Source: Escherichia coli
Lineage (GTDB): Bacteria > Pseudomonadota > Gammaproteobacteria > Enterobacterales > Enterobacteriaceae
Length of the DNA stretch: 64,000 nucleotides
Assembly (NCBI RefSeq): GCF_003334405.1
Contig: NZ_QOWM01000011.1
Strand: one strand, 5' to 3'
Both the position numbers and the translations under genes were made by a program. Shown here one piece after another: positions 14,385 to 55,855 of the stretch; within the stretch, counting starts at the first letter, position 1, and every line of letters starts with the position of its first letter. The notes under the pieces were generated by a model. The model searched no databases and was not told the origin of the DNA. It was given only the letters and a program-made list of their open reading frames with translations.

Positions 14385-14393
14385 CAGTCGACG

Positions 14394-15049: not shown

Positions 15050-15757
15050 ATGAATAAGGAAGAACAATATCTTCTTTTTGCGCTTTCTGCGCCCATGGAA
15101 ATACTTAATCAGGGTTGCAAACCCGCGCATGACTCGCCAAAAATGTATACTGGGATAAAAGAATTCGAGCTCTCATCATCCTGGGGAATAAATAATCGTG
15201 ATGATTTAATTCAGACTATTTATCAGATGACTGATGATGGTCATGCCAATGATTTAGCTGGCTTATATCTGACATGGCATCGCTCTTCCCCTGAAGAGTG
15301 GAAAGCATTAATTGCTGGTGGCTCGGAGAGAGGGTTGATTTATACCCAATTCGTTGCCCAAACCGCTATGTGCTGTGGGGAAGGGGGAATCAAAGCCTGG
15401 GATTATGTTCGAATGGGGTTTCTGTCACGGGTCGGTGTGCTCAACAAGTGGCTGACGGAAGAAGAGAGTTTATGGCTGCAATCGCGCGTCTATGTACGAG
15501 CTCACCATTACTATCACAGCTGGATGCACTATTTTTCCGCCTATTCGTTAGGACGTCTCTACTGGCAATCTTCTCAGTGCGAAGACAACACTTCGCTACG
15601 CGAGGCGCTAACCCTGTACAAATACGATAGCGCCGGGAGTCGTATGTTCGAAGAGCTGGCAGCGGGAAGCGATCGTTTCTATGCCACGCTTCCCTGGCAG
15701 CCATTAACTGTCCAGTCTGAATGCCCGGTAACGCTTAAGGATGTGAGCGACCTATGA
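15050..15757 (+). CDS. ybeU: DUF1266-family protein YbeU (paralog of YbeR)
   Basis: ORF track 235 aa; aligns along its length with YbeR; stop overlaps djlC start. Confidence 0.9.
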
Positions 15758-17205: not shown

Positions 17206-17226
17206 CGATGTGTTTTTTGCGCCGAT

Positions 17227-17257
17227 GCCGGATGCAGCGTTTACGCCGCATCCGGCA
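17227..17257. repeat. REP (repetitive extragenic palindrome) element
   Basis: gccggatgcagcgtttacgccgcatccggca imperfect palindrome between convergent djlC and hscC. Confidence 0.7.
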
Positions 17258-22221: not shown

Positions 22222-22384
22222 CAGAAAAAAGAGGGTAGCAGCGTTAACTGCTACCCTCGAAGATTGTTACCCAGCGTATTGCGGTTTTCAGGCCCGATGG
22301 GGAACGACCATCAGGCGTATAGTCTGTCCGTGCTACGTAACAATCGAGAGGGCTGGAATTTCCGCCCCTGGTTCTTGTAATTAG
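22222..22384 (-). ncRNA. sroC: SroC-like sRNA from the gltI-gltJ spacer (3' end at intrinsic terminator hairpin)
   Basis: Hairpin gagggtagcag/ctgctaccctc (22231-22258) followed on the minus strand by a T6 run, just upstream of the gltJ start; location matches recalled SroC. Boundaries approximate. Confidence 0.5.
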
Positions 22385-23289: not shown

Positions 23290-23685
23290 ATCCAACTCCT
23301 TTATCTTCTGCGTTAAGAACGCATGGATACCCGTTGTGAGTGTTTGTGTTGTTATCGTCTGCAACTTTATTGTGCAGTGTTGTGCCTGTTAGGTAACATT
23401 TAGTTTGGCTAAATGTAAAGATATTGCTGTTTTATTGTTTGTTTTTGCGAGATGCGCCGCACCATTCCGAAGCAAAATTCTTAAAATGCACTCTTTTAGT
23501 GCTACCGCTGGATTACTGTGGTGCAACTAGGTTGTACTGATGCTGATTCAGGGTTTGCCTTGTATAACAAAGCAATAGATGTGCCAAAGTTGGATAGGAG
23601 AATATTGTTATCCGGATAATGCACTGATGCCGCATCCGGTGAGCGTGCCGAAATATGGGATGTATTCCGGCACGATAAGAAGGGA

Positions 23686-30629: not shown

Positions 30630-30720
30630 TTGCCGGATGCGTGCCAACCGTAGGTCGGATAAGACGCGGCAGCGTCGCATCCGACATTGAAGGATAAGAC
30701 GTGTCAACATCGCATTCGAC
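30630..30720. repeat. Cluster of REP elements (BIME) downstream of ubiF
   Basis: gccggatgcg..., taggtcggataagacgcg...cgtcgcatccgacat, ...cgcattcgacat palindromic units. Confidence 0.65.
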
Positions 30721-30741
30721 ATTGAATGAACGCAGAAAAGC

Positions 30742-30772: not shown

Positions 30773-30847
30773 TGGCTGGGGTACGAGGATTCGAACCTCG
30801 GAATGCCGGAATCAGAATCCGGTGCCTTACCGCTTGGCGATACCCCA
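30773..30847 (-). tRNA. glnV: tRNA-Gln (anticodon CUG); glnV/glnX type
   Basis: 75 nt; revcomp TGGGGTATCGCCAAGCGGTAAGGCACCGGATTCTGATTCCGG...CCCCAGCCA; anticodon loop TTCTGAT. Only one CUG copy present, so glnV versus glnX is ambiguous. Confidence 0.93.
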
Positions 30848-30894
30848 ACAAATTGGTTTTGAATTTGCCGAACATATTCGACACATTCAGAATT

Positions 30895-30971
30895 TGGTGG
30901 CTACGACGGGATTCGAACCTGTGACCCCATCATTATGAGTGATGTGCTCTAACCAACTGAGCTACGTAGCC
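30895..30971 (-). tRNA. metU: tRNA-Met elongator (anticodon CAU)
   Basis: 77 nt; revcomp GGCTACGTAGCTCAGTTGGTTAGAGCACATCACTCATAATGATGGGGTCACAGGTTCGAATCCCGTCGTAGCCACCA. Confidence 0.93.
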
Positions 30972-30986
30972 AGATTGTTTCTTCGA

Positions 30987-31061
30987 TGGCTGGGGTACCT
31001 GGATTCGAACCAGGGAATGCCGGTATCAAAAACCGGTGCCTTACCGCTTGGCGATACCCCA
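30987..31061 (-). tRNA. glnU: tRNA-Gln (anticodon UUG); glnU/glnW type
   Basis: 75 nt; anticodon loop TTTTGAT in revcomp; only one UUG copy present, so glnU versus glnW is ambiguous. Confidence 0.93.
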
Positions 31062-31084
31062 TCCGTACAACGCTTTCTGGTGAA

Positions 31085-31169
31085 TGGTGCGGGAGGCGAG
31101 ACTTGAACTCGCACACCTTGCGGCGCCAGAACCTAAATCTGGTGCGTCTACCAATTTCGCCACTCCCGC
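31085..31169 (-). tRNA. leuW: tRNA-Leu (anticodon UAG)
   Basis: 85 nt with long variable arm; revcomp GCGGGAGTGGCGAAATTGGTAGACGCACCAGATTTAGGTTCTGG... Confidence 0.93.
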
Positions 31170-31178
31170 AAAAAAAGA

Positions 31179-31255
31179 TGGTGGCTACGACGGGATTCGA
31201 ACCTGTGACCCCATCATTATGAGTGATGTGCTCTAACCAACTGAGCTACGTAGCC
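31179..31255 (-). tRNA. metT: tRNA-Met elongator (anticodon CAU)
   Basis: 77 nt; identical in sequence to the tRNA at 30895..30971. Confidence 0.93.
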
Positions 31256-33299: not shown

Positions 33300-33546
33300 A
33301 ACCTTCTCCGTTAACCTGGTATTTGTTGCTTGTTGTGTTTGCTTGTTTAAAAAAATGCCGCAAAGCAGCACTGTGCGCAAGCGATTTGGCGGTGAAAAAA
33401 TAAAAAACGTAATGGTGATTGTCGATTGGTGAAAAAAGGTCTGGTGTGAGGATATATTTATTGATGAATCGATAATTTTTAGCGGGTTTTATTGAATGTT
33501 TATATTTTACGGGGGCCAAATTGCTGACAAAGTGCGATTTGTTCAT

Positions 33547-33646
33547 GCCGGATGCGGCGTGAACGCCTTATCCGGCCTACAAAAGCATGAAAATTCAATA
33601 TATTGCAGGAGCTGCGTAGGCCTGATAAGCGTAGCGCATCAGGCAG
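33547..33646. repeat. Composite REP-spacer-REP element (BIME/RIP-like), copy 1
   Basis: gccggatgcggcgtgaacgccttatccggcctac ... aatatattgcagg ... gtaggcctgataagcgtagcgcatcaggca; inverted orientation relative to copies at 41896 and 49386. Confidence 0.7.
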
Positions 33647-33695
33647 TTTGGCGTTTGTCATCAGAGCCAACCACGTCCGCAGACGTGGTTGCTAT

Positions 33696-34448
33696 TCAGA
33701 TAACGTCGATTTCAGCGACTGACGGGTAAATCCAGCTGGGGCGGAAAGGCATACTGTCGATATCGTCGAGCGACGAAACACCAGAAAGCACCAGAATCGT
33801 CTCCAGACCTGCCTGGAAGCCGGCCAGAATATCGGTACGCAGGTTATCGCCGACAATCACCGTTTCTTCCGAATGCGCCTGCATTTTGTTTAATGCTGCG
33901 CGGATGATCCACGGGCTGGGCTTACCAACATAGAACGGTTTGCGCCCGGAGATTTTCTCAATCCCTGCACACAACGCGCCACAAGCGGGATAAAAACCGC
34001 GCCCGTGGGTGTCCGGATTGGTGGCGATAAAACGTGCACCGTTAGCGACGAAATAGGCTGCTTTATGCATCATGTCCCAGTTGTAGGAACGCGTTTCGCC
34101 AACAATCACGAAATCAGGGTTCACATCGGTAATAGTGAAACCGGCTTTGTACAGTTCATGAATCAGTGCGCCTTCGCCCACCACATACGCTTTCTTGCCT
34201 TCCTGGCGACGCAGGAAATCGGCAGTCGCCATCGCAGAGGTATAAAACACGCTGTCAGGTACATCGACACCTGCGGTGGCAAAGCGGTTCGCCAGATCTT
34301 GCCCAGTCTGCGAAGGATAGTTGGTCAGCAACACCAGCGGCAGGCCTTTATCCATAATCCCGTGCAAAAATTCCGCTGCACCCGGTACGGCGACGTTATC
34401 GTGCATCAGCACGCCGTCGATATCGCAAATTACATTTTTAATGGTCAT
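33696..34448 (-). CDS. umpH: UMP phosphatase (HAD superfamily)
   Basis: ORF track 250 aa; HAD motif DIDGVL; last gene of the nag operon. Confidence 0.92.
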   Translation of the reverse strand: MTIKNVICDIDGVLMHDNVAVPGAAEFLHGIMDKGLPLVLLTNYPSQTGQDLANRFATAGVDVPDSVFYTSAMATADFLRRQEGKKAYVVGEGALIHELYKAGFTITDVNPDFVIVGETRSYNWDMMHKAAYFVANGARFIATNPDTHGRGFYPACGALCAGIEKISGRKPFYVGKPSPWIIRAALNKMQAHSEETVIVGDNLRTDILAGFQAGLETILVLSGVSSLDDIDSMPFRPSWIYPSVAEIDVI

Positions 34449-34495
34449 GGACTACCCAGAATATTGACAACAATAAGCGCCACTATAAAAGCACA

Positions 34496-35716
34496 TTAAT
34501 TTTCCAGCAAATGCTGGAGCAAAATACCGTTGAGCATGGCGCGTTTTACCAGCGCAAAAGCGCCGATTGCCGAGCGGTGATCCAGCTCAGAACGTACCAC
34601 CGGCAGATTAGTGCGAAACGCCTTCAGCGCCTGGGTATTAATGCAGCTTTCAATAGCAGGGAGCAGCACTTTATCGGCTTCGGTGATTTCACCGGCAATA
34701 ACAATTTTTTGCGGATTAAATAAGTTGATAGCAATGGCGATGGTTTTACCCAGATGACGACCGACATACTCAATTACTTCCGACGCCAGACTATCGCCTT
34801 TGTTCGCGGCTTTGCAGATAGTTTTGATGGTGCAGTCGTCCAGCGGCACGCGGCTCTGGTAGCCCTGCTTTAACAGATTCAACACCCGTTGTTCAATGGC
34901 AGCGTTGGCAGCGATAGTTTCCAGGCAGCCAAAGTTGCCGCAGTGGCAGCGTTCACCCAGCGGTTCGACCTGAATATGGCCAATTTCACCGACGTTGCCG
35001 TTGCGGCCAATAAAAATGCGCCCGTTAGAGATAATCCCGGCCCCGGTTCCGCGATGGACACGCACCAGAATGGAGTCTTCGCAATCCTGACTTGCACCGA
35101 AGTAGTGCTCCGCCAGCGCCAGACTACGGATATCGTGACCAACGAAACAGGTCACTTTAAAACGTTCTTCCAGAGCTTCTACCAGCCCCCAGTTTTCTAC
35201 CTGAATATGCGGCATGTAATGAATTTTGCCGCTGTCCGGGTCAACAAGCCCTGGCAGGATCACCGAAATCGCGATCAGCTCGCGCAGTTTGCGCTGGTAG
35301 CTATCAATAAACTGAGCAATGGCATTCAACAGGGCATGTTCCAGCGTTTGCTGGGTACGTTCCGGCAGCGGGTAATGTTCTTCTGCCAGCACTTTGCTGC
35401 TGAGATCAAACAGAGTGATGGTGGCGTCATGACGACCAAGCCGTACGCCGATTGCGTGGAAATTGCGGGTTTCGGTGACGATGGAGATAGCGCGGCGGCC
35501 CCCGGTGGAGGCCTGCTGATCAACTTCTTTGATCAGCCCGCGTTCGATAAGCTGACGCGTAATTTTGGTTACGCTGGCGGGGGCAAGCTGGCTTTGCTCG
35601 GCAATCTGAATCCGCGAGATTGGCCCGTACTGGTCAATCAGGCGATAAACCGCCGCGCTGTTAAGCTGTTTTACGAGATCAACATTACCTATCTGAGCTT
35701 GTCCGCCTGGTGTCAT
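34496..35716 (-). CDS. nagC: N-acetylglucosamine repressor (ROK family)
   Basis: ORF track 406 aa; N-terminal HTH, ROK domain. Confidence 0.93.
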   Translation of the reverse strand: MTPGGQAQIGNVDLVKQLNSAAVYRLIDQYGPISRIQIAEQSQLAPASVTKITRQLIERGLIKEVDQQASTGGRRAISIVTETRNFHAIGVRLGRHDATITLFDLSSKVLAEEHYPLPERTQQTLEHALLNAIAQFIDSYQRKLRELIAISVILPGLVDPDSGKIHYMPHIQVENWGLVEALEERFKVTCFVGHDIRSLALAEHYFGASQDCEDSILVRVHRGTGAGIISNGRIFIGRNGNVGEIGHIQVEPLGERCHCGNFGCLETIAANAAIEQRVLNLLKQGYQSRVPLDDCTIKTICKAANKGDSLASEVIEYVGRHLGKTIAIAINLFNPQKIVIAGEITEADKVLLPAIESCINTQALKAFRTNLPVVRSELDHRSAIGAFALVKRAMLNGILLQHLLEN

Positions 35717-35724
35717 ACTTTCTC

Positions 35725-37733
<2,009 letters not shown>

Positions 37734-38065
37734 TATTCACCTCAATAAGTAAAATGTAAGCCGTTGGCGGATTAGGCATCTTTAAGCGTAACCTGGATTT
37801 GCGCAGACAGGCGTCAATCCGACCTGATTTTTTGAATGATAAAATAAGTTTTCTGGTTTAGCCAGTAAAAGGGAGTGATGATAACGATATTTGGTGACAA
37901 AACTCACAAAAGACACGCGTTTAATTTGCGATACGAATTAAATTTTCACACACTCTGTAGCAGATGATCTAACAATCTGATTACAGAACATCGGCAGTAC
38001 AATTTGCAGCAAAATAAAAATACGGCTTGAAACGAGCCAAATAGGGTTCTCGTAGGGGGAATAAG
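37734..38065. promoter_or_regulatory. Divergent nagB / nagE promoter-operator region
   Basis: 332-bp AT-rich spacer between divergently transcribed nagB and nagE; NagC operators and a CRP site are expected here from established knowledge but were not mapped base-by-base. Confidence 0.4.
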
Positions 38066-40012
38066 ATGAATATTTTAGGTTTTTTCCAGCGACTCGGTAG
38101 GGCGTTACAGCTCCCTATCGCGGTGCTGCCGGTGGCGGCACTGTTGCTGCGATTCGGTCAGCCAGATTTACTTAACGTTGCGTTTATTGCCCAGGCGGGC
38201 GGTGCGATTTTTGATAACCTCGCATTAATCTTCGCCATCGGTGTGGCATCCAGCTGGTCGAAAGACAGCGCTGGTGCGGCGGCGCTGGCGGGTGCGGTAG
38301 GTTACTTTGTGTTAACCAAAGCGATGGTGACCATCAACCCAGAAATTAACATGGGTGTACTGGCGGGTATCATTACCGGTCTGGTTGGTGGCGCAGCCTA
38401 TAACCGTTGGTCCGATATTAAACTGCCGGACTTCCTGAGCTTCTTCGGCGGCAAACGCTTTGTGCCGATTGCCACCGGATTCTTCTGCCTGGTGCTGGCG
38501 GCCATTTTTGGTTACGTCTGGCCGCCGGTACAGCACGCTATCCATGCAGGCGGCGAGTGGATCGTTTCTGCGGGCGCGCTGGGTTCCGGTATCTTTGGTT
38601 TCATCAACCGTCTGCTGATCCCAACCGGTCTGCATCAGGTACTGAACACCATCGCCTGGTTCCAGATTGGTGAATTCACCAACGCGGCGGGTACGGTTTT
38701 CCACGGTGACATTAACCGCTTCTATGCCGGTGACGGCACCGCGGGGATGTTCATGTCCGGCTTCTTCCCGATCATGATGTTCGGTCTGCCGGGTGCGGCG
38801 CTGGCGATGTACTTCGCAGCACCGAAAGAGCGTCGTCCGATGGTTGGCGGTATGCTGCTTTCTGTTGCTGTTACTGCGTTCCTGACCGGTGTGACTGAGC
38901 CGCTGGAATTCCTGTTCATGTTCCTTGCTCCGCTGCTGTACCTCCTGCACGCACTGCTGACCGGTATCAGCCTGTTTGTGGCAACGCTGCTGGGTATCCA
39001 CGCGGGCTTCTCTTTCTCTGCGGGGGCTATCGACTACGCGTTGATGTATAACCTGCCGGCCGCCAGCCAGAACGTCTGGATGCTGCTGGTGATGGGCGTT
39101 ATCTTCTTCGCTATCTACTTCGTGGTGTTCAGTTTGGTTATCCGCATGTTCAACCTGAAAACGCCGGGTCGTGAAGATAAAGAAGACGAGATCGTTACTG
39201 AAGAAGCCAACAGCAACACTGAAGAAGGTCTGACTCAACTGGCAACCAACTATATTGCTGCGGTTGGCGGCACTGACAACCTGAAAGCGATTGACGCCTG
39301 TATCACCCGTCTGCGCCTTACAGTGGCTGACTCTGCCCGCGTTAACGATACGATGTGTAAACGTCTGGGTGCTTCTGGGGTAGTGAAACTGAACAAACAG
39401 ACTATTCAGGTGATTGTTGGCGCGAAAGCAGAATCCATCGGCGATGCGATGAAGAAAGTCGTTGCCCGTGGTCCGGTAGCCGCTGCGTCAGCTGAAGCAA
39501 CTCCGGCAACTGCCGCGCCTGTAGCAAAACCGCAGGCTGTACCAAACGCGGTATCTATCGCGGAGCTGGTATCGCCGATTACCGGTGATGTCGTGGCACT
39601 GGATCAGGTTCCTGACGAAGCATTCGCCAGCAAAGCGGTGGGTGACGGTGTGGCGGTGAAACCGACAGATAAAATCGTCGTATCACCAGCCGCAGGGACA
39701 ATCGTGAAAATCTTCAACACCAACCACGCGTTCTGCCTGGAAACCGAAAAAGGCGCGGAGATCGTCGTCCATATGGGTATCGACACCGTAGCGCTGGAAG
39801 GTAAAGGCTTTAAACGTCTGGTGGAAGAGGGTGCGCAGGTAAGCGCAGGGCAACCGATTCTGGAAATGGATCTGGATTACCTGAACGCTAACGCCCGCTC
39901 GATGATTAGCCCGGTGGTTTGCAGCAATATCGACGATTTCAGTGGCTTGATCATTAAAGCTCAGGGCCATGTTGTGGCGGGTCAAACACCGCTGTATGAA
40001 ATCAAAAAGTAA
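38066..40012 (+). CDS. nagE: PTS N-acetylglucosamine-specific EIICBA component
   Basis: ORF track 648 aa; membrane EIIC followed by EIIB and EIIA domains. Confidence 0.93.
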   Translation: MNILGFFQRLGRALQLPIAVLPVAALLLRFGQPDLLNVAFIAQAGGAIFDNLALIFAIGVASSWSKDSAGAAALAGAVGYFVLTKAMVTINPEINMGVLAGIITGLVGGAAYNRWSDIKLPDFLSFFGGKRFVPIATGFFCLVLAAIFGYVWPPVQHAIHAGGEWIVSAGALGSGIFGFINRLLIPTGLHQVLNTIAWFQIGEFTNAAGTVFHGDINRFYAGDGTAGMFMSGFFPIMMFGLPGAALAMYFAAPKERRPMVGGMLLSVAVTAFLTGVTEPLEFLFMFLAPLLYLLHALLTGISLFVATLLGIHAGFSFSAGAIDYALMYNLPAASQNVWMLLVMGVIFFAIYFVVFSLVIRMFNLKTPGREDKEDEIVTEEANSNTEEGLTQLATNYIAAVGGTDNLKAIDACITRLRLTVADSARVNDTMCKRLGASGVVKLNKQTIQVIVGAKAESIGDAMKKVVARGPVAAASAEATPATAAPVAKPQAVPNAVSIAELVSPITGDVVALDQVPDEAFASKAVGDGVAVKPTDKIVVSPAAGTIVKIFNTNHAFCLETEKGAEIVVHMGIDTVALEGKGFKRLVEEGAQVSAGQPILEMDLDYLNANARSMISPVVCSNIDDFSGLIIKAQGHVVAGQTPLYEIKK

Positions 40013-40060
40013 TCTGCTTTATGCCTGATGCGACGCTTGAGCGTCGCATCCAACAATGAC

Positions 40061-40094
40061 AAGCGGTGGAGATCTTCTCTGCCGCTTTTTTTTT
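40061..40094 (+). terminator. Intrinsic terminator of nagE
   Basis: Hairpin agcgg...ccgct (40062-40086) followed by a T9 run; preceded by a REP-like palindrome at 40025-40050. Confidence 0.7.
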
Positions 40095-40214
40095 CATCAA
40101 TCATCCCCATAATCCTTGTTAGATTATCAATTTTAAAAAACTAACAGTTGTCAGCCTGTCCCGCTTATAAGATCATACGCCGTTATACGTTGTTTACGCT
40201 TTGAGGAATCCACG

Positions 40215-41879
40215 ATGAGTGAGGCAGAAGCCCGCCCGACTAACTTTATCCGTCAGATCATCGATGAAGATCTGGCCAGTGGTAAGCACACCACAGTACA
40301 CACCCGTTTCCCGCCGGAGCCGAATGGCTATCTGCATATTGGCCATGCGAAATCTATCTGCCTGAACTTCGGGATCGCCCAGGACTATAAAGGCCAGTGC
40401 AACCTGCGTTTCGACGACACTAACCCGGTAAAAGAAGATATCGAGTATGTTGAGTCGATCAAAAACGACGTAGAGTGGTTAGGTTTTCACTGGTCTGGTA
40501 ACGTCCGTTACTCCTCCGATTATTTTGATCAGCTCCACGCCTATGCGATCGAACTGATCAATAAAGGCCTGGCGTACGTTGATGAACTGACGCCGGAACA
40601 GATCCGCGAATACCGCGGCACCCTGACGCAACCGGGTAAAAACAGCCCGTACCGCGACCGCAGCGTTGAAGAGAACCTGGCGCTGTTCGAAAAAATGCGT
40701 GCCGGTGGTTTTGAAGAAGGTAAAGCCTGCCTGCGTGCGAAAATCGACATGGCTTCACCGTTTATCGTGATGCGCGATCCGGTGCTGTACCGTATTAAAT
40801 TTGCTGAACACCACCAGACTGGCAACAAGTGGTGCATCTACCCGATGTACGACTTCACCCACTGCATCAGCGATGCCCTGGAAGGTATTACGCACTCTCT
40901 GTGTACGCTTGAGTTCCAGGACAACCGTCGTCTGTACGACTGGGTACTGGACAACATCACGATTCCTGTTCACCCGCGCCAGTATGAGTTCTCGCGCCTG
41001 AATCTGGAATACACCGTGATGTCCAAGCGTAAGTTGAACCTGCTGGTGACCGACAAGCACGTTGAAGGCTGGGATGACCCGCGTATGCCGACCATTTCCG
41101 GTCTGCGTCGTCGTGGTTACACTGCGGCTTCTATTCGTGAGTTCTGCAAACGCATCGGCGTGACCAAGCAGGACAACACCATTGAGATGGCGTCGCTGGA
41201 ATCCTGCATCCGTGAAGATCTCAACGAAAATGCGCCGCGCGCAATGGCGGTTATCGATCCGGTGAAACTGGTTATCGAAAACTATCAGGGCGAAGGCGAA
41301 ATGGTTACCATGCCGAACCATCCGAACAAACCGGAAATGGGCAGCCGTCAGGTGCCGTTTAGCGGTGAGATTTGGATTGATCGCGCCGATTTCCGCGAAG
41401 AAGCTAACAAGCAGTACAAACGTCTGGTGCTGGGTAAAGAAGTGCGTCTGCGTAATGCTTATGTGATTAAGGCAGAACGCGTCGAGAAAGATGCCGAAGG
41501 TAATATCACCACCATCTTCTGTACTTATGACGCCGATACCTTAAGCAAAGATCCGGCAGATGGTCGTAAAGTCAAAGGTGTTATTCACTGGGTGAGCGCG
41601 GCACATGCGCTGCCGGTTGAAATCCGTTTGTATGACCGTCTGTTCAGCGTGCCTAACCCAGGTGCTGCGGATGATTTCCTGTCGGTGATTAACCCGGAAT
41701 CGCTGGTGATCAAACAGGGCTTTGCTGAACCGTCGCTGAAAGATGCGGTTGCGGGTAAAGCATTCCAGTTTGAGCGTGAAGGTTACTTCTGCCTCGATAG
41801 CCGCCATTCTACGGCGGAAAAACCGGTATTTAACCGCACCGTTGGGCTGCGTGATACCTGGGCGAAAGTAGGCGAGTAA
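40215..41879 (+). CDS. glnS: Glutaminyl-tRNA synthetase
   Basis: ORF track 554 aa; HIGH motif ([14 protein letters not shown]) and VMSKR. Confidence 0.95.
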
Positions 41880-41895
41880 TTTTAAGTTTCGCTAT

Positions 41896-42057
41896 GCCGG
41901 ATGGGGCGTTTACGTCGCATCCGGCAAGGAACAGACAAACAGTTTCAAACGCTAAATTGCCTGATGCGCTACGCTTATCAGGCCTACATGATCTCTGCAA
42001 TATATTGAGTTTGCGTGCTTTTGTAGGCCGGATAAGGCGTTCACGCCGCATCCGGCA
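41896..42057. repeat. Composite REP-spacer-REP element (BIME/RIP-like), copy 2, with an extra leading REP
   Basis: REP units at 41896-41926, 41958-41988 and 42023-42057; central part near-identical to the element at 49386-49484. Confidence 0.7.
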
Positions 42058-42437
42058 AGAAACAGCAAACAATCCAAAACGCCGCGTTCAGCGGCGTTTT
42101 TTCTGCTTTTCTTCGCGAATTAATTCCGCTTCGCAATTTATCCATAAAATAAATTTAAAATAACAAAACATAATTAAATAAAATGTAACCGCTTTCATCT
42201 TGCTGGAATTTCACGCTTTTATTCTTCTGCAAGCCTTTCAACCGCAAACTTAAGCCTTGTAACAAAAATCATCAAAATATGTGCGGTTGCTCATGTTCTT
42301 ACATTCTGGTTACAGAAAGAGATTGATAATTCGCGTCGCGAAAAATAGTCTGTTCCTGTAGTCAGCGAGACTTTTCTCAACGCTACTTTTTTAATTTTTA
42401 TTTTTTCGCTGTTCACCTTTGGTGCAGCAATTTATAC

Positions 42438-42449
42438 GTCAAAGAGGAT
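42438..42449 (+). promoter_or_regulatory. chiP ribosome-binding region overlapping the presumed ChiX sRNA pairing site
   Basis: cgtcaaagagga immediately 5' of the chiP ATG (42456); recalled to be complementary to the ChiX seed. Not verified by computation. Confidence 0.4.
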
Positions 42450-42455
42450 TAACCC

Positions 42456-43862
42456 ATGCGTACGTTTAGTGGCAAACGTAGTACGCTGGCGCTGGCTATC
42501 GCCGGTGTTACAGCAATGTCGGGCTTTATGGCAATGCCGGAGGCTCGCGCCGAAGGATTCATCGACGATTCAACCTTAACCGGCGGTATCTATTACTGGC
42601 AGCGTGAACGCGACCGTAAAGATGTTACCGACGGCGACAAATACAAAACCAACCTTTCTCACTCCACCTGGAATGCCAACCTCGATTTTCAGTCCGGTTA
42701 TGCTGCTGATATGTTCGGCCTTGATATTGCTGCGTTTACGGCGATTGAAATGGCGGAAAACGGCGACAGCTCCCACCCGAACGAAATCGCGTTTTCAAAA
42801 AGTAATAAAGCCTATGACGAAGACTGGTCCGGCGACAAAAGCGGTATAAGCCTGTATAAAGCTGCGGCCAAATTTAAAAACGGTCCGGTTTGGGCGAGGG
42901 CAGGTTACATTCAGCCAACTGGTCAAACGCTGTTAGCGCCGCACTGGAGCTTTATGCCAGGTACTTATCAGGGGGCGGAAGCCGGGGCGAATTTTGATTA
43001 CGGCGATGCTGGTGCGTTGAGTTTCTCCTACATGTGGACCAACGAATACAAAGCGCCGTGGCATCTGGAAATGGATGAGTTTTATCAGAACGATAAAACC
43101 ACCAAAGTTGATTATCTGCACTCCTTTGGGGCGAAATACGACTTCAAAAATAACTTCGTACTGGAAGCGGCATTTGGTCAGGCGGAAGGGTATATCGATC
43201 AATATTTTGCCAAAGCCAGCTACAAATTTGATATCGCCGGTAGCCCGTTAACCACCAGCTACCAGTTCTACGGTACCCGAGATAAAGTTGACGATCGCAG
43301 CGTCAACGACCTTTATGACGGCACCGCCTGGCTGCAAGCGTTGACCTTTGGTTACCGGGCGGCTGACGTAGTGGATTTGCGCCTCGAAGGCACCTGGGTT
43401 AAGGCTGACGGTCAGCAGGGATACTTCCTGCAACGTATGACTCCAACCTACGCTTCCTCAAACGGTCGCCTGGATATCTGGTGGGATAACCGTTCTGACT
43501 TCAACGCCAACGGCGAAAAAGCGGTCTTCTTCGGTGCGATGTATGACCTGAAAAACTGGAATCTTCCAGGCTTCGCCATCGGCGCTTCCTACGTTTACGC
43601 ATGGGATGCTAAACCTGCGACCTGGCAGAGCAATCCGGATGCGTACTACGACAAAAACCGGACTATTGAAGAGTCTGCCTACAGCCTGGATGCGGTCTAT
43701 ACCATTCAGGACGGTCGCGCCAAAGGCACGATGTTCAAACTGCATTTCACCGAATACGACAACCACTCCGACATCCCAAGCTGGGGCGGTGGTTACGGCA
43801 ACATCTTCCAGGATGAGCGTGACGTGAAATTTATGGTAATCGCACCATTCACCATCTTCTGA
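42456..43862 (+). CDS. chiP: Chitoporin (outer-membrane chitooligosaccharide porin)
   Basis: ORF track 468 aa; signal peptide and C-terminal aromatic residue (beta-barrel). Confidence 0.92.
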
Positions 43863-43911
43863 TGCCCGACGCGGCAGGTTTTGTGCCTGCCGCACGTTTG
43901 AGGAATTTGCT

Positions 43912-44238
43912 ATGAAAAAACTGATTCTCATCGCCATAATGGCATCGGGGCTGGTAGCTTGTGCGCAATCAACCGCGCCACAGGAAGACAGTCGTCTGAA
44001 AGAGGCATACAGCGCCTGTATCAACACCGCACAAGGTTCGCCAGAAAAAATTGAAGCCTGCCAGAGCGTGTTAAACGTGCTGAAGAAAGAGAAACAACAT
44101 CAGCAGTTTGCCGACCAGGAAAGTTTACGCGTACTGGATTATCAGCAGTGTCTGCGTGCAACGCAAACCGGAAATGATCAGGCGGTGAAAGCCGATTGTG
44201 ATAAAGTCTGGCAGGAAATACGCAGTAATAACAAATAA
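43912..44238 (+). CDS. chiQ: Lipoprotein ChiQ
   Basis: ORF track 108 aa; lipobox LVAC. Confidence 0.9.
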   Translation: MKKLILIAIMASGLVACAQSTAPQEDSRLKEAYSACINTAQGSPEKIEACQSVLNVLKKEKQHQQFADQESLRVLDYQQCLRATQTGNDQAVKADCDKVWQEIRSNNK

Positions 44239-44276
44239 GTGAGAGCTGTAACTCTCGCTTTTCTTATTTCCCTTGC

Positions 44277-44308
44277 ATAAAAAAGCCAACCCGCAGGTTG
44301 GCTTTTCT
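44277..44308. terminator. Bidirectional intrinsic terminator between convergent chiQ and fur
   Basis: Stem gccaacc(44285-91)/ggttggc(44296-302) flanked by an A run and a T run; an additional hairpin gagag/ctctc lies at 44241-44256. Confidence 0.6.
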
Positions 44309-44321
44309 CGTTCAGGCTGGC

Positions 44322-44768
44322 TTATTTGCCTTCGTGCGCATGTTCATCTTCGCGGCAATCGCCTTCGGCACAGTGACCGTAAAGATAGAGACTGTGGTTA
44401 GTCAGGCGAATGCCATGTTTTGCGGCAATTTCACGCTGACGCGCTTCGATGGAATCATCACTAAATTCGATAACCTTGCCGCAGTCGAGGCAGATCAGGT
44501 GATCGTGGTGATGTTGCTGTGTCAGTTCAAATACGGATTTACCGCCTTCAAAATTGTGGCGGGTGACGATACCAGCGTCGTCAAACTGGTTCAGTACGCG
44601 ATATACCGTAGCCAGACCAATTTCTTCACCCATATCGATCAGACGTTTGTATAAATCTTCCGCACTGACGTGATGGTTGTCCGGCTCCTGAAGAACTTCC
44701 AGGATTTTTAAACGAGGAAGCGTTACTTTCAGGCCAGCTTTCTTTAGGGCGGTATTGTTATCAGTCAT
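44322..44768 (-). CDS. fur: Ferric uptake regulator
   Basis: ORF track 148 aa, recognised Fur sequence (HHHDHLICLDCGKVIEF). Confidence 0.96.
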   Translation of the reverse strand: MTDNNTALKKAGLKVTLPRLKILEVLQEPDNHHVSAEDLYKRLIDMGEEIGLATVYRVLNQFDDAGIVTRHNFEGGKSVFELTQQHHHDHLICLDCGKVIEFSDDSIEARQREIAAKHGIRLTNHSLYLYGHCAEGDCREDEHAHEGK

Positions 44769-44847
44769 GCGGAATCTGTCCTGTTACTAAGCGGTTCACT
44801 TCATTAGAAGAAGTGACAGAATTTGCTCTTGAGATAATGCGTATCAT
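44761..44847 (-). CDS. uof: Upstream-of-fur leader peptide (28 aa)
   Basis: Last 28 codons of ORF 44761..44997 read MIRIISRANSVTSSNEVNRLVTGQIPHD; overlaps the fur start by 8 nt. Confidence 0.7.
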   Translation of the reverse strand: MIRIISRANSVTSSNEVNRLVTGQIPHD

Positions 44848-44851
44848 TATA
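44833..44851 (-). promoter_or_regulatory. Fur box-like palindrome in the fur/uof promoter (autoregulation)
   Basis: gataatgcgtatcattata resembles the Fur box consensus GATAATGATAATCATTATC. Confidence 0.5.
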
Positions 44852-45056
44852 GAATTGCCACGCCTAAATGAAAACCACAAGTCCCTGGCAAATATTGTTA
44901 ATAAAAACGTGGCACAGCTTACATTTACAACGGCAAGGCCACTTGAACACCGGGACATTGTACAGGTACAACAGCAAAAGTTACAAATTTGTAGCAATTA
45001 TTTTGATTGGCATTATCTATTAATACGGCGTAGACATGAGTCTACGCCGCATCACA

Positions 45057-45587
45057 TCAGGCATTGAGAATTTCGTCGAGATGCAACTCTTCAGAAATCT
45101 GTTTAACCCATTTTTCTACACGTTCAGCGGTCAGTTCCGGCTGACGGTCTTCGTCGATAGCCAGACCGACAAAGTGGTCGTCATCTGCCAGACCTTTTGA
45201 TGCTTCGAAATGATAGCCCGCAGTTGGCCAGTGACCAACGATGGTTGCACCGCGCGGTTCAATGATGTCGCGGATGGTGCCCAATGCGTCGCAGAAATAT
45301 TCGGCGTAATCTTCCTGGTCACCACAACCAAACAGCGCAACCAGTTTGCCGTTGAAATCAATCTCTTCGAGAGTCGGGAAGAAGTCATCCCAGTCACACT
45401 GCGCTTCGCCGTAATACCAGGTTGGGATGCCCAGCAGCAGAATGTCATAAGCTTCCAGATCTTCTTTGCTGCTTTTTGCAATGTCATGGACATCGGCAAC
45501 GTCTTTACCAAGCTGTTTTTGAATCATTTTTGCGATATTTTCGGTATTACCGGTGTCGCTGCCGAAAAAGATGCCAGTGATAGCCAT
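45057..45587 (-). CDS. fldA: Flavodoxin 1
   Basis: ORF track 45057..45704; start placed at internal Met ([16 protein letters not shown]) giving 176 aa. Confidence 0.93.
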
Positions 45588-45726
45588 GAGTGAAATAACC
45601 TCTTGAAACTTATTGAAATGGGGGTGGAAAATTGCCCACGGATAAAGGCAATCATAGCAGAACAGGCAGTCTTGCGGAATCAGCAAACGAGCAGGACTGC
45701 ACACTGTGCTACATGAAAGTGGAAAT

Positions 45727-46020
45727 TTAAACGATGCCCTGACTACGCAGCGCCGCCAGTTGCTGCATTAACATCTCTTCGATCAGTTCGCTACGGCTCA
45801 TATTGCGCGACTCCGCCAGCTCGTTCAGCGCCTCGACAGCTTCCGCGTTCAGCTTCAGTTCGACACGCTTAAGGCCACGTACTTTGTCGCGTTTTAGCTG
45901 GTTGCGTTTATTAATACGCAGCTGTTCATCGCGCGAAAGCGGATTAGTTTTCGGTCGTCCCGGTCGACGCTCGTGCGCGAACAGATCTAATGTCGTACGG
46001 TCCGTTTGTTCTTTGGCCAT
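45727..46020 (-). CDS. ybfE: YbfE, small ribbon-helix-helix-like protein (recalled as LexA-regulated)
   Basis: ORF track 45727..46089; start placed at [14 protein letters not shown] (97 aa); C-terminal region resembles a CopG/RHH fold. Confidence 0.8.
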
Positions 46021-46159
46021 GATCTTGGTGACTTCGGGGGAAACAATCAGCCAGGCCTCTGCCCGGATGGATAGCGCGCCATAATACATCAGCGCGATGA
46101 GTCACGCCAACGCCCACGCGCGGAAAGCGACGCGGACGCTGGGTTTTTAATCAGTTGCG

Positions 46160-46924
46160 TTAATCATTGAGATAGCGACGGATAGCGCGTAATACCGCAT
46201 CCGGTTTTTCAGCATGGACCCAGTGACCCGCGCCTGCAATCACATGCGCCCGTGCCTGTGGAAATTGAGCCAGTAAATCATCACGGTACTGCTCGCTAAC
46301 ATACGGAGAATTGCCGCCAGGGATAAACAGGGCAGGGTGATCCCATGCCGGGATTTTCTCCCAACCTACAATATGCGGATACTGATCCCACAATACCGGC
46401 ACGTTAAAGCGCCACTCCCCGTCAACAAAAGATTTCAGCAGAAACTGAATCACCCCTTCTTCATTAAGATGCTGGCGCATTATTGCTGCTGCTTGCTGGC
46501 GAGTTTGTGCGTCCGATTCACTGACCGCGTTGATAGCCGCAAAAATCTCATCATGACGGCGTACGTGATAGTCGACCGGCGCGATATCGATCGCCACCAG
46601 TTTATCGATGCGATCGGAGGCTAGTGCAGTAAGTGCCATTACCGCTTTACCGCCCATGGAGTGACCGATAAATGTTGCTTTGTCGATCTGCTGTGCATCC
46701 AGAGTATCAACAAGATCCTGCGCCATCGCCGGGTAATTCATTACCGGATCTCTCGGTGAAAGACCGTGGTTACGCATATCAACCTGGATGATATTGTGAT
46801 CGTTTACCAGATCGCGAGCCAGTACGCCAAGGTTGTCGAGGCTGCCAAACAGACCGTGGACAAGAACGATGGGAGAATTATTGTGCTGGTTTTGTGCAGT
46901 TTGCGCGCGGATATTCAATTTCAT
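46160..46924 (-). CDS. ybfF: Alpha/beta-hydrolase esterase YbfF
   Basis: ORF track 254 aa; GHSMGG nucleophile elbow. Confidence 0.92.
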   Translation of the reverse strand: MKLNIRAQTAQNQHNNSPIVLVHGLFGSLDNLGVLARDLVNDHNIIQVDMRNHGLSPRDPVMNYPAMAQDLVDTLDAQQIDKATFIGHSMGGKAVMALTALASDRIDKLVAIDIAPVDYHVRRHDEIFAAINAVSESDAQTRQQAAAIMRQHLNEEGVIQFLLKSFVDGEWRFNVPVLWDQYPHIVGWEKIPAWDHPALFIPGGNSPYVSEQYRDDLLAQFPQARAHVIAGAGHWVHAEKPDAVLRAIRRYLND

Positions 46925-47108
46925 GGCAAAGTTCTTTTTTTCGCGTTGTCGGGTTAGGGTATTATGTTGACCATTGTGCCACAGGGCTGCAACAAATAAG
47001 GTTTATTCCGAGTTTTTCTGCAAGCCAGGCTTGACGCTATCCGCTGCCGGGATTTATTCATATACTCCTGGCGACTTGTATTCAGCTAAGACACTGCACT
47101 GGATTAAG

Positions 47109-47654
47109 ATGAAAACGATTGAAGTTGATGATGAACTCTACAGCTATATTGCCAGCCACACTAAGCATATCGGCGAGAGCGCATCCGACATTTTACGGCG
47201 TATGTTGAAATTTTCCGCCGCATCACAGCCTGCTGCTCCGGTGACGAAAGAGGTTCGCGTTGCGTCACCTGCTATCGTCGAAGCGAAGCCGGTCAAAACG
47301 ATTAAAGACAAGGTTCGCGCAATGCGTGAACTTCTGCTTTCGGATGAATACGCAGAGCAAAAGCGAGCGGTCAATCGCTTTATGCTGCTGTTGTCTACAC
47401 TATATTCTCTTGACGCCCAGGCGTTTGCCGAAGCAACGGAATCGTTGCACGGTCGTACACGCGTTTACTTTGCGGCAGATGAACAAACGCTGCTGAAAAA
47501 TGGTAATCAGACCAAGCCGAAACATGTGCCAGGCACGCCGTATTGGGTGATCACCAACACCAACACCGGCCGTAAATGCAGCATGATCGAACACATCATG
47601 CAGTCGATGCAATTCCCGGCGGAATTGATTGAGAAGGTTTGCGGAACTATCTAA
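47109..47654 (+). CDS. seqA: Negative modulator of replication initiation SeqA
   Basis: ORF track 46974..47654; start placed at internal Met ([17 protein letters not shown]) giving 181 aa. Confidence 0.93.
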
Positions 47655-47679
47655 AACGTTGCAGACAAAGGACAAAGCA

Positions 47680-49320
47680 ATGGCAATCCACAATCGTGCA
47701 GGCCAACCTGCACAACAGAGTGATTTGATTAACGTCGCCCAACTGACGGCGCAATATTATGTACTGAAACCAGAAGCAGGGAATGCGGAGCACGCGGTGA
47801 AATTCGGTACTTCCGGTCACCGTGGCAGTGCAGCGCGCCACAGCTTTAACGAGCCGCACATTCTGGCGATCGCTCAGGCAATTGCTGAAGAACGTGCGAA
47901 AAACGGCATCACTGGCCCTTGCTATGTGGGTAAAGATACTCACGCCCTGTCCGAACCTGCATTCATTTCCGTTCTGGAAGTGCTGGCAGCGAACGGCGTT
48001 GATGTCATTGTGCAGGAAAACAATGGCTTCACCCCGACGCCTGCCGTTTCCAATGCCATCCTGGTTCACAATAAAAAAGGTGGCCCGCTGGCAGACGGTA
48101 TCGTGATTACACCGTCCCATAACCCGCCGGAAGATGGTGGAATCAAATACAATCCGCCAAATGGTGGCCCGGCTGATACCAACGTCACTAAAGTGGTGGA
48201 AGACAGGGCCAACGCACTGCTGGCCGATGGCCTGAAAGGCGTGAAGCGTATCTCCCTCGACGAAGCGATGGCATCCGGTCATGTGAAAGAGCAGGATCTG
48301 GTGCAGCCGTTCGTGGAAGGTCTGGCCGATATCGTTGATATGGCCGCGATTCAGAAAGCGGGCCTGACGCTGGGCGTTGATCCGCTGGGCGGTTCCGGTA
48401 TCGAATACTGGAAGCGTATTGGCGAGTATTACAACCTCAACCTGACTATCGTTAACGATCAGGTCGATCAAACCTTCCGCTTTATGCACCTTGATAAAGA
48501 CGGCGCGATCCGTATGGACTGCTCCTCCGAGTGTGCGATGGCGGGCCTGCTGGCACTGCGTGATAAGTTCGATCTGGCGTTTGCTAACGACCCGGATTAT
48601 GACCGTCACGGTATCGTCACTCCGGCAGGTTTGATGAATCCGAACCACTACCTGGCGGTGGCAATCAATTACCTGTTCCAGCATCGTCCGCAGTGGGGCA
48701 AAGATGTTGCCGTCGGTAAAACGCTGGTTTCATCTGCGATGATCGACCGTGTGGTCAACGACTTGGGCCGTAAACTGGTAGAAGTCCCGGTAGGTTTCAA
48801 ATGGTTTGTCGATGGTCTGTTCGACGGCAGCTTCGGCTTTGGCGGCGAAGAGAGTGCAGGGGCTTCCTTCCTGCGTTTCGACGGCACGCCGTGGTCCACC
48901 GACAAAGACGGCATCATCATGTGTCTGCTGGCGGCGGAAATCACCGCTGTCACCGGTAAGAACCCGCAGGAACACTACAACGAACTGGCAAAACGCTTTG
49001 GTGCGCCGAGCTACAACCGTTTGCAGGCAGCTGCGACTTCCGCACAAAAAGCGGCGCTGTCTAAGCTGTCTCCGGAAATGGTGAGCGCCAGCACCCTGGC
49101 AGGTGACCCGATCACCGCGCGCCTGACTGCTGCTCCGGGCAACGGTGCTTCTATTGGCGGTCTGAAAGTGATGACTGACAACGGCTGGTTCGCCGCGCGT
49201 CCGTCAGGCACGGAAGACGCATATAAGATCTACTGCGAAAGCTTCCTCGGTGAAGAACATCGCAAGCAGATTGAGAAAGAAGCGGTTGAGATTGTTAGCG
49301 AAGTTCTGAAAAACGCGTAA
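47680..49320 (+). CDS. pgm: Phosphoglucomutase
   Basis: ORF track 47629..49320; start placed at [13 protein letters not shown] (546 aa); phosphoserine motif region TPSHNP. Confidence 0.94.
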
Positions 49321-49332
49321 ACACATTTAATA

Positions 49333-49366
49333 AAAAAAGGGCGGTCGCAAGATCGCCCTTTTTTAC
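49333..49366 (+). terminator. Intrinsic terminator of pgm
   Basis: Hairpin gggcggtc-gcaa-gatcgccc followed by a T6 run. Confidence 0.65.
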
Positions 49367-49385
49367 GTATGACAAACACAGAATT

Positions 49386-49484
49386 GCCTGATGCGCTACG
49401 CTTATCAGGCCTACGAGGATGGTGCAATATATTGAATTTAAGCGATTTTGTAGGCCGGATAAGGCGTTCACGCCGCATCCGGCA
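49386..49484. repeat. Composite REP-spacer-REP element (BIME/RIP-like), copy 3
   Basis: gcctgatgcgctacgcttatcaggcctac ... gcaatatattga ... gtaggccggataaggcgttcacgccgcatccggca; near-identical to 41958-42057. Confidence 0.7.
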
Positions 49485-49533
49485 AAAACAACGAACACTT
49501 TGTCAACAAACTGAGTAGCTCAAGGAAATCCCA

Positions 49534-50827: not shown

Positions 50828-50842
50828 ACATTGCCACTTTTT

Positions 50843-50986
50843 TCAAAGCATAAACCGATACCCAATACCGGTTTCAGTAATAAAATGGCGAGGCCGGGCC
50901 GGATCCTGTTCCAGTTTTTGTCGCAGATGCCCCATATAATTACGCAAATAGTTGCTGTGTTCGATCGCGTTTAGACCCTACATCTG
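50843..50986 (-). pseudogene. ybfI: Fragment homologous to the 3' end of kdpE (ybfI-like gene remnant)
   Basis: About 90% nucleotide identity to 55178-55320 (the last ~48 codons of kdpE), e.g. tcaaagcataaaccgata[c/g]ccaataccggtttcagtaat[a/g]aaatggcg; no intact ORF. Confidence 0.65.
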
Positions 50987-51024
50987 CCGGATGCGGCATA
51001 AATAACGAACTATTTGCCAACAAA

Positions 51025-51058
51025 CAGAAAGGGCGATCATTCAATCGCCCTTTTTTAC
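51025..51058. terminator. Terminator hairpin downstream of potE
   Basis: Stem gggcga(51031-36)/tcgccc(51045-50) with flanking A run and T6 run; adjacent REP-like gccggatgcggcat at 50986-51000. Confidence 0.5.
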
Positions 51059-55143: not shown

Positions 55144-55177
55144 ATTAATAAAAGGCAGGCTGTATTAAAATTAATAT

Positions 55178-55855
55178 TCAAAGCATAAACCGATAGCCAA
55201 TACCGGTTTCAGTAATGAAATGGCGTGGGCGGGCGGGATCCTGTTCCAGTTTTTGTCGCAGATGTCCCATATAAATACGCAAATAGTGACTGTGTTCGAC
55301 CGCGTTTGGCCCCCACACCTGGTTAAGGAGCTGGCGCTGGGTGAGTACTTTTCCGGCATTGTTGAGCAGCACCGCCAGCAGGCGGAACTCAATTGGTGTG
55401 AGATGCACCTCTTCCTCACCCCGGTGAATCACGCGGGCGGCTAAATCGACGGTAACATCGGAAAATTTTACCAGCGGATCGGGCGCGGTGGTGGCAGAGT
55501 GGCGGCGTAATGCGACGCGCAGACGGGCCTGCAATTCGCCAATGCCAAACGGCTTACTCAGATAATCATCCGCTCCGGCATCCAGCGCGGCGATTTTGTC
55601 GCTCTCTTCGCTGCGTGCGGAAAGCACAATCACCGGCACCGCGCTCCACTGGCGCAGGTCGCGGATAAACTCAATCCCATCACCATCGGGCAGGCCGAGA
55701 TCGAGAATAATCAAATCTGGCTTACGGGTTGCCGCTTCCAGCAAGCCGCGTTGCAGCGTTTCGGCCTCAAAGACGCGCATCCCGTCGCCCTCCAGCGCCG
55801 TGCGCAGAAAGCGACGAATAGCCTGTTCATCTTCAACAATCAGAACGTTTGTCAC
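55178..55855 (-). CDS. kdpE: Response regulator KdpE (OmpR family)
   Basis: ORF track 225 aa; receiver domain ([17 protein letters not shown]) plus winged-helix domain. Confidence 0.95.
   Translation of the reverse strand: MTNVLIVEDEQAIRRFLRTALEGDGMRVFEAETLQRGLLEAATRKPDLIILDLGLPDGDGIEFIRDLRQWSAVPVIVLSARSEESDKIAALDAGADDYLSKPFGIGELQARLRVALRRHSATTAPDPLVKFSDVTVDLAARVIHRGEEEVHLTPIEFRLLAVLLNNAGKVLTQRQLLNQVWGPNAVEHSHYLRIYMGHLRQKLEQDPARPRHFITETGIGYRFML

Follow-up and report, generated by a model that had tools for sequence, protein, structure and literature searches.

Introduction

BIME-1 elements form the single-copy subclass of the bacterial interspersed mosaic elements (BIMEs), which derive from repetitive extragenic palindromes (REPs) and belong to Escherichia coli and its near relatives. 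They have two synonyms, RIP, for "repetitive IHF-binding palindromic element", and RIB, for "reiterative ihf BIME", where IHF is integration host factor. Both names reportedly stem from work on E. coli K-12, RIP from Oppenheim et al. in 1993 and RIB from Boccard and Prentki in 1993 (EMBO J 12:5019). Here we analyze three composite repeats that are almost certainly BIME-1 copies, located in a 64,000-nt stretch of E. coli DNA (RefSeq assembly GCF_003334405.1, contig NZ_QOWM01000011.1) that we refer to in its entirety as the window. BIME-1 was first described in 1991-1993, and its anatomy, its binding of IHF, its 3′-end location and its presence or absence among strains are covered by the literature. 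The K-12 element joins one Y-type and one Z1-type REP, inverted and tail to tail, around an L linker of ~35 nt that carries an IHF-type site, and it occurs as a single copy per locus at extragenic 3′-end locations, present in some isolates and absent from others. The window copies are the same in each of these respects and show no substantive difference; the copy at glnS adds a Y-type REP 131 bp upstream of its Y arm. The published definition matches the window anatomy point by point, including a length with flanks of ~140 bp as compared with about 132-147 bp here (PMC3333891, PMC1187871, PMC2817692). It has also been reported that individual loci carry BIME-1 in some E. coli isolates and lack it in others (PMC1187871) and that the L linker of the family is bound by IHF (PMC3333891, PMC2817692).

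Other described systems share part of this organization. BIME-2 elements likewise have extragenic REPs in alternating orientation that vary among strains, but they combine Y with Z2 REPs through short S, s, l and r linkers and form tandem arrays, whereas the window units have a Z1 REP, a long L linker and no tandem repetition. Documented strong cleavage by gyrase is confined to BIME-2 (PMC6379681, PMC1475751). REPINs and REP doublets, such as the R0 family of Pseudomonas fluorescens, also consist of two inverted REPs and a spacer in one unit of ~90-150 bp, and their proposed mobilizer is a domesticated IS200/IS605-like Y1 transposase (PMC3333891, PMC2817692). A REPIN, however, has two REPs of the same type and a spacer without a known protein site, whereas in BIME-1 the REPs are of two types and flank a conserved linker, which according to the family literature binds IHF. 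Two Rfam models also overlap with the element: RF02751 (ES036, or CssrF) is equivalent to the L linker plus the Z1 tail, and the first hairpin of RF02564 (naRNA4, or CssrE) aligns with the Y REP. Both are filed as small RNA (sRNA) genes, whereas in the window copy 1 alone passes the ES036 model and none of the copies passes naRNA4.

Three composite repeats with the anatomy of BIME-1

The composite repeat occurs in exactly three copies in the window, with cores at 33546-33645 (inverted), 41958-42057 and 49385-49484 (Table 1). The original prediction, which was made from the letters of the window, had described three similar intergenic elements with a BIME/RIP-like REP-spacer-REP structure, and BLAST, alignment and a self-repeat search all place them within 1 nt of the positions that it gave. 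Read as in copies 2 and 3, the unit consists of TGCCTGATGCGCTACGCTTATCAGGCCTAC (30 nt, Z1 type), a 35-nt linker and GTAGGCCGGATAAGGCGTTCACGCCGCATCCGGCA (35 nt, inverted Y type). The REPs are tail to tail in 3/3 copies (...CAGGCCTAC-[35 nt]-GTAGGCCGG...), with their GTAG/CTAC tails toward the linker, and each copy has one Y-type and one Z1-type REP, matching the Y and Z1 consensi at 35/35 and 30/30 positions, respectively, at all three sites by BLAST. Independently of these consensi, the sequence itself shows that the two arms, 35 and 30 nt long, belong to different REP types.

With copy 1 reverse-complemented, the three-way alignment has a mean column identity of 88% across ~136 nt, and ungapped pairwise identities over the 100-nt core are 90, 90 and 88. 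The REP arms are identical between copies at 65/65 positions, and the linkers share 23-25 of 35. Copies 2 and 3 had been described as nearly identical and are instead the least similar pair (88/100, with 23/35 in the linker). The self-repeat search paired copies 2 and 3 (D6, 41946-42061 with 49373-49488), copies 1 and 3 (I1, 33521-33661 with 49369-49509, 141 nt, 85%) and copies 1 and 2 (I2 and I3, 94-95%), and it showed one unit per site and no tandem array at any of the three sites. Self-alignment carries the similarity past the REP palindromes, and because the linkers, the flanks and the 13-mer TGCAATATATTGA are also common to the three copies, the resemblance is not confined to the palindromes. 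The conserved flanks bring the whole unit to about 132-147 bp in the window. Since the flanks outside the REPs are conserved across the family, we take this to be the true length of the unit, so that the ~100 bp given in the original prediction describes its core.

From ~33,500 to at least 51,500, the window maps to the genome of K-12 MG1655 (NC_000913.3; ~699-715 kb) with a constant offset of +665,878. By comparison with this reference, copy 1 lies between two minus-strand genes, umpH (nagD) and asnB, copy 2 lies after glnS, and copy 3 lies after pgm and before ybfP, which agrees with the gene context assigned before. The corresponding MG1655 positions are about 699,424-699,523, 707,836-707,935 and 715,263-715,362. 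Copy 1 has the order Z1, L, Y on the minus strand, which is the direction of umpH transcription, and all three copies follow a gene 3′ end (umpH, glnS, pgm) and read Z1, L, Y along the upstream gene. The RefSeq annotation of MG1655 has no repeat_region features in 690-718 kb, and RIP or REP labels are not readable there. Because every defining feature of BIME-1 that sequence can address is found in the three copies (inverted Y and Z1 REPs, a linker of ~35 nt, single copies, extragenic location, gene 3′ ends), the analysis supports their identity as BIME-1.

Table 1. Positions of the composite repeats, their parts and related features. Coordinates refer to the window, except in the last row, where they refer to the stretches named.
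Feature	Position	Strand	Remarks
BIME-1 copy 1, whole unit with conserved flanks	33516..33662	-	between umpH/nagD stop and asnB upstream region
Y-type REP, copy 1	33546..33580	+	35/35 against Y consensus (BLAST)
L linker, copy 1, 35 nt	33581..33615	-	IHF-like 13-mer ATTCAATATATTG at 33593-33605 (+)
Z1-type REP, copy 1	33616..33645	-	30/30 against Z1 consensus
BIME-1 copy 2, whole unit	41941..42072	+	glnS 3′ untranslated region, upstream of glnS terminator
Z1-type REP, copy 2	41958..41987	+	30/30 against Z1 consensus
L linker, copy 2	41988..42022	+	IHF-like 13-mer ACTCAATATATTG at 41998-42010 (-)
Y-type REP, copy 2	42023..42057	-	35/35 against Y consensus
BIME-1 copy 3, whole unit	49369..49515	+	between pgm terminator and ybfP
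Z1-type REP, copy 3	49385..49414	+	30/30 against Z1 consensus
L linker, copy 3	49415..49449	+	IHF-like 13-mer ATTCAATATATTG at 49425-49437 (-)
Y-type REP, copy 3	49450..49484	-	35/35 against Y consensus
glnS intrinsic terminator, 10-bp stem and T run	42076..42106	+	after copy 2
pgm intrinsic terminator, GGGCGGTC-GCAA-GATCGCCC then TTTTTT	49336..49366	+	read from sequence; repeat D14; before copy 3
Extra Y-type REP, overlooked by the original prediction	41893..41934	-	just after glnS stop; 87% to Y
Solitary Y-type REP, near-perfect palindrome	17226..17257	.	self-repeats D5, I4; BLAST
Z2-like REP (30650-30690), then degenerate second copy (30686-30725)	30650..30725	-	self-repeat D10; BLAST
Solitary Z2-like REP	40022..40053	+	self-repeat D10; BLAST
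Tandem-array loci in other genomes	L009 6980-7310; L110 9465-9760; L115 2705-3275; L118 7894-8505; L119 13953-14315		

The linker core and its IHF-type site

Each linker is laid out as a variable 8 nt, the invariant TGCAATATATTGA and a semi-conserved stretch that ends in TTTT. The 13-mer has three zero-mismatch matches in 64 kb, every one inside a composite repeat; within two mismatches there are nine matches as compared with 1.9 expected, and 0/100 shuffles reached nine. The complementary strand of the core is A[T/C]TCAATATATTG in each copy, which agrees with the IHF consensus WATCAANNNNTTR at 12/13 positions, and an exact match to this consensus is present in none of the three cores. The IHF-type site predicted in the core is thus a 12/13 match and not an exact one, and matches of the former kind are as frequent as chance would have them (see below). 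We predict from the family literature that the L linkers of the three copies would be bound by IHF.

A further comparison is with the H′ IHF site of phage lambda attP, which reads AAAAAAGCATTGCTTATCAATTTGTTGCA. Copy 1 reads CAAAAGCATGAAAATTCAATATATTGCA with similar spacing, and the apparent likeness comprises an A tract, GCAT, a spacer, a WATCAA-like hexamer, four free bases and TTG(CA), whereas position 2 of the hexamer is T or C in the window copies and A in H′. The A tract, the GCAT and the spacing upstream of the core thus resemble the H′ site and may serve as a lead.

The family in other genomes

We scanned one genome per species with the exact pattern GGCCTAC-N5-13-GCAATWWATTGA-N12-22-GTAGGCC. 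Among the matches listed were at least 120 stretches with at least 125 further copies, almost all in Escherichia and Pseudocitrobacter. These included at least 23 stretches from E. albertii, at least 22 from E. whittamii, at least 17 from Escherichia sp. MOD1-EC7003, at least 8 and at least 6 from two genomes named E. coli (at least 14 together), at least 13, 16 and 5 from three Pseudocitrobacter genomes (at least 34 together), and at least one each from three Enterobacter species and one Citrobacter metagenome-assembled genome (MAG). The rest of the matches listed fell on short contigs (L030, L076, L078, L102-L104) assigned to Desulfosporosinus, Alkalicoccobacillus, Methylobacterium and a Collinsella MAG. 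The presence of BIME-1 on contigs of these unrelated taxa looks like E. coli contamination of public assemblies; the Collinsella MAG contig (L104) is 100% identical to the pgm-ybfP region of the window.

The consensus of 128 aligned copies (...ctgatgacaaacGcaaaAtTGCCTGATGCGCTaCGCTTATCAGGCCTACangnntncTGCAATaTATTGAATTtGCangaTTTTGTAGGCCGGATAAGGCGTTnACGCCGCATCCGGCAtgaAcaangcgcActttgtcagCaatc) shows a conserved linker core, TGCAATaTATTGAATTtGC...TTTT, and conserved outer flanks, and variation inside the REPs is concentrated at the hairpin loop positions. Among the matches listed, 983 kb in all, there were 151 tail-to-tail REP pairs, of which 146 had a linker of 34-36 nt (35 nt in 108, 34 nt in 28 and 36 nt in 10). 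The pattern itself requires the core; 26 pairs were not picked through this requirement, and 24 of these 26 still had the core in a form altered at one or two places, which takes away part of the scan's ascertainment bias.

To place the copies relative to genes we used crude calls, namely non-overlapping open reading frames of at least 100 codons, which left 93 copies flanked by two called genes. Among the matches listed, 56 of these lay between convergent, 34 between co-directional and 3 between divergent genes, as compared with a baseline at the same loci of 9-11% convergent, 59-70% co-directional and 19-32% divergent gene pairs (chi-square p < 1e-48, a nominal value since some copies are orthologous and hence not independent). 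At least one gene 3′ end was faced by 90/93 copies among the matches listed. Orientation relative to co-directional genes was split 22:12 (binomial p = 0.12), and with so slight a split we do not claim an orientation bias for the family. Arrays of 3-6 tandem copies with an L-type linker and a period of ~107-162 bp were seen in E. albertii and Escherichia sp. MOD1-EC7003 (Table 1). As in so-called atypical BIMEs, the linker of the "single-copy" BIME-1 is found in tandem in these arrays.

Transcription context

The intrinsic terminator of glnS comes after copy 2, which places this copy and the extra REP beyond the glnS stop codon in the glnS 3′ untranslated region. The terminator of pgm precedes copy 3, so that copy 3 would be transcribed only by read-through. 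The pgm terminator had been missed by a simple terminator scan, probably because the A/T extension of its stem takes up part of the T run. A hairpin similar to it (AAAGGGCG...CGCCCTTTTTTAC, 81% identical to 49336-49366 after pgm) is found at 51028-51058 near the ybfI/potE end. The minus strand also has a terminator-like hairpin with a T run at 33354-33372, downstream of copy 1 and 55-73 nt ahead of the asnB start codon. The nag operon transcript could in truth end at this hairpin, or the hairpin could belong to the asnB leader.

When the strand of the upstream gene was folded as a single strand, the minimum free energies of the three copies ranged from -41.5 to -44.1 kcal/mol and the z-scores from -3.7 to -4.8. 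The folds were a pair of REP hairpins or, alternatively, a single long hairpin in which Z1 pairs with Y and the linker forms the loop. Such stable hairpins just past the stop codon at 3/3 sites, in a family strongly enriched at gene 3′ ends, could suggest that the elements serve to terminate transcription of umpH/nagD, glnS and pgm, and BIMEs have been linked to transcription attenuation and Rho-dependent termination (work cited in PMC2817692; see also Espeli et al. 2001). No REP stem in any of the three copies, however, is followed by a T run, the canonical terminators of glnS and pgm are separate from the elements, and strains without the repeat at these two sites keep the same terminators. 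We consider it highly improbable that the elements are terminators. The terminator function included in the original prediction is thus assigned at two of the three sites to a separate intrinsic terminator. Its list of functions as a whole (mRNA stabilizer, terminator, gyrase site, IHF site, recombination hot spot) is too broad for BIME-1, strong gyrase binding being a property of BIME-2.

It could also be asked if the linker or the whole element is an sRNA gene, either ES036/CssrF or a trans-acting nucleoid RNA like naRNA4. Copy 1 scores 41.1 bits against RF02751 at 33581-33623 on the plus strand, above the gathering score of 37.6, and the Y REPs reach a sub-threshold 31-42.5 bits against RF02564, where 59.5 are needed. 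CssrF was seen in Shigella as a northern band of ~290 nt (PMC3071730), and naRNA4, which derives from REPs, is reported to help condense the nucleoid with HU (PMC6907758). The ES036 model consensus, however, aligns base for base with the BIME-1 linker and Z1 tail, and because of this the match of copy 1 restates membership in the family. Copies 2 and 3 fall below the ES036 threshold (28.9 bits at 41980-42022 and 24.7 bits at 49407-49449, both on the minus strand), and at each of the three sites the model runs antisense to the upstream gene. The only promoter-like sites found near the elements do not face them, the one at copy 1 being ~90 bp away on the strand opposite to umpH and the single one near copy 2 lying downstream of the glnS terminator. 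The Shigella band, which is downstream of yhbZ and on the same strand, fits a 3′ mRNA fragment protected by REPs rather than an independent gene. At the three copies we see no sign in the sequence of an independent transcription unit, and ES036/CssrF would here be best read as a model of the repeat and not as evidence for an sRNA gene; we regard the sRNA-gene reading as very unlikely. The model is in effect one of the BIME-1 linker and will match many intergenic regions of Escherichia. The value of identifying the three stretches as BIME-1 is in annotation, where the appropriate label is repeat element, rather than sRNA gene or site regulating asnB, glnS or pgm.

Presence and absence among strains

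All 5,426 complete E. coli genomes had matches to the copy 2 sequence among the matches listed. A query with flanks only showed that the asnB-nagD interval has two allele sizes, 570 bp in the window and in K-12 and ~430 bp in strains such as O157:H7, and the filled allele was found in 2,279/5,426 genomes (~42%), the others having the allele of ~430 bp. At glnS, a segment of 131 bp bounded by direct Y REPs at 41893 and 42024 distinguishes the filled allele, as in K-12, from the empty one, as in strain THO-008. The first of these is the extra REP, a direct repeat of the copy 2 Y arm that makes the locus a three-REP cluster, and it is the sole REP remaining at glnS in strains without copy 2, where the terminator follows directly. 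The difference fits either a deletion by recombination between Y REPs or an insertion beside a resident REP. The pgm site has three structural alleles, and those with and without the repeat also differ in their downstream genes: in strain FORC_029 potE adjoins pgm and no BIME is present, in the O145 strain RM12367 pgm is followed by BIME-1 and then kdpE, and in the window by BIME-1 and then ybfP-ybfG-ybfI-potE-speF. The RM12367 and FORC_029 alleles thus place copy 3 at the border of a block that varies among strains (ybfP-ybfG-ybfI, potE-speF). Among the matches listed, no stretch from another Escherichia species spans the asnB-nagD, glnS or pgm site, and the sole match is the Collinsella MAG contig.

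Presence or absence among strains, together with a size of ~100-150 bp, inverted terminal arms and many dispersed copies, would also be expected of miniature inverted-repeat transposable elements, that is, deletion derivatives of insertion sequences (IS) moved by a DDE transposase with terminal inverted repeats and target-site duplications. The arms, however, are not IS ends but REPs, one of 35 nt and one of 30 nt, that differ in type. No target-site duplication was seen when filled and empty sites were compared at all three loci; at asnB-nagD the empty allele has 30 unrelated bases in place of 170, and at glnS the difference is the one between direct Y REPs. In addition, the mechanism published for the BIME family is a single-strand Y1 transposase, the REP-associated tyrosine transposase (RAYT; PMC3333891). 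There is next to no chance that the three repeats are elements of the DDE type. We rejected the terminator, sRNA-gene and DDE-element readings on the grounds of the separate terminators, the identity of ES036 with the linker and the REP arms without target-site duplication, respectively.

Proposed roles and the weight of the evidence

The best overall explanation is that the three elements are BIME-1 copies with the roles typical of the family (probability about 0.9), where the anatomy is observed in the window and the functions come from the family literature. On double-stranded DNA, one IHF dimer would bind the L linker at A[T/C]TCAATATATTG, preceded by the A tract, and would bend the DNA sharply between the two REP palindromes, which may be prone to cruciform extrusion. 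With such a bend between the REPs, each copy would constitute a fixed site for a nucleoid protein where a transcription unit ends. The affinity for gyrase would be weak, unlike that of BIME-2, to judge by the family. Where the element is transcribed, as in copy 2, its G+C-rich REP hairpins would block 3′-to-5′ exonucleases and could dampen read-through; at the 3′ end of the glnS mRNA they should slow exonucleolytic decay. Copy 3 lies beyond the pgm terminator, and we therefore propose that it acts mainly at the DNA level. Copies may be spread, lost and rearranged through RAYT (TnpA-REP) and ordinary recombination between REPs. In single-stranded DNA, this Y1 transposase binds REP hairpins that carry the GTAG tag; its cleavage at the inverted REP and within linkers has been proposed as the route of spread and rearrangement (PMC3333891). 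Cleavage and strand transfer by E. coli TnpA-REP in vitro have reportedly been studied on BIME-2 and partial BIMEs.

Several points weigh against this account. The Y and Z1 consensi used for typing were set down only after the window sequences had been seen. Matches to the IHF consensus at the 12/13 level number 58 in the window as compared with 53 expected, which is the chance frequency, and since one-mismatch matches at this frequency are found in 55 other places we give the consensus match no weight as evidence; the sequence by itself is no proof that IHF binds the three linkers. An RNA-level role of copy 3 is doubtful because of its position after the pgm terminator. Comparisons of filled with empty sites gave no clean insertion signature, and each difference may be a gain or a loss. 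No RAYT gene was found near the elements, though no search for RAYT was made in the window. The K-12 RAYT gene, yafM, is elsewhere in the genome.

Beyond the family roles, BIME-1 units could be markers of the break points of strain-variable segments or favor the formation of such break points, and a transcript of the ES036/CssrF linker could have a role in trans at the nucleoid like that of naRNA4. Copy 3 lies exactly at the edge of the variable block between pgm and kdpE/potE, and copy 2 may differ from the empty allele by an exchange between direct Y REPs. Support for the break-point and trans-RNA ideas goes no further than coincidence of position, and we think both unlikely.

Other REPs and repeats in the window

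Simple REP units had been predicted at five further places, and three of them are real: the solitary Y-type REP at 17226-17257, the Z2-like REP at 30650-30690 with its degenerate neighbor, beside which there is also a partial REP head at 30631-30641, and the Z2-like REP at 40022-40053. The unit placed at 23602 is a degenerate REP-like palindrome (23610-23640), and the one placed at 50986 is a 13-nt half-REP (50985-50997).

The tRNA cluster at 30776-31255 has five tRNA genes as compared with seven in MG1655 (glnX-glnV-metU-glnW-glnU-leuW-metT), which accounts for a 221-bp shift in the offset between the window and K-12 and indicates that the window comes from a non-K-12 strain of E. coli. A direct repeat of 145 nt with 90% identity joins 50842-50986, in a ybfI pseudogene fragment, and 55177-55321, at the kdpE 3′ end. 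The window also contains a full-length sroC sRNA at 22223-22385 on the minus strand (RF00369, 174.8 bits), which is unrelated to the composite repeats. Finally, three collinear direct-repeat blocks of 232, 220 and 171 nt with 72-77% identity and a spacing of 2797 bp link 12543-13315 with 15340-16112, suggesting two paralogous genes or a tandem gene duplication, and related short repeats are found at 11581-11852 and 11655-14650.

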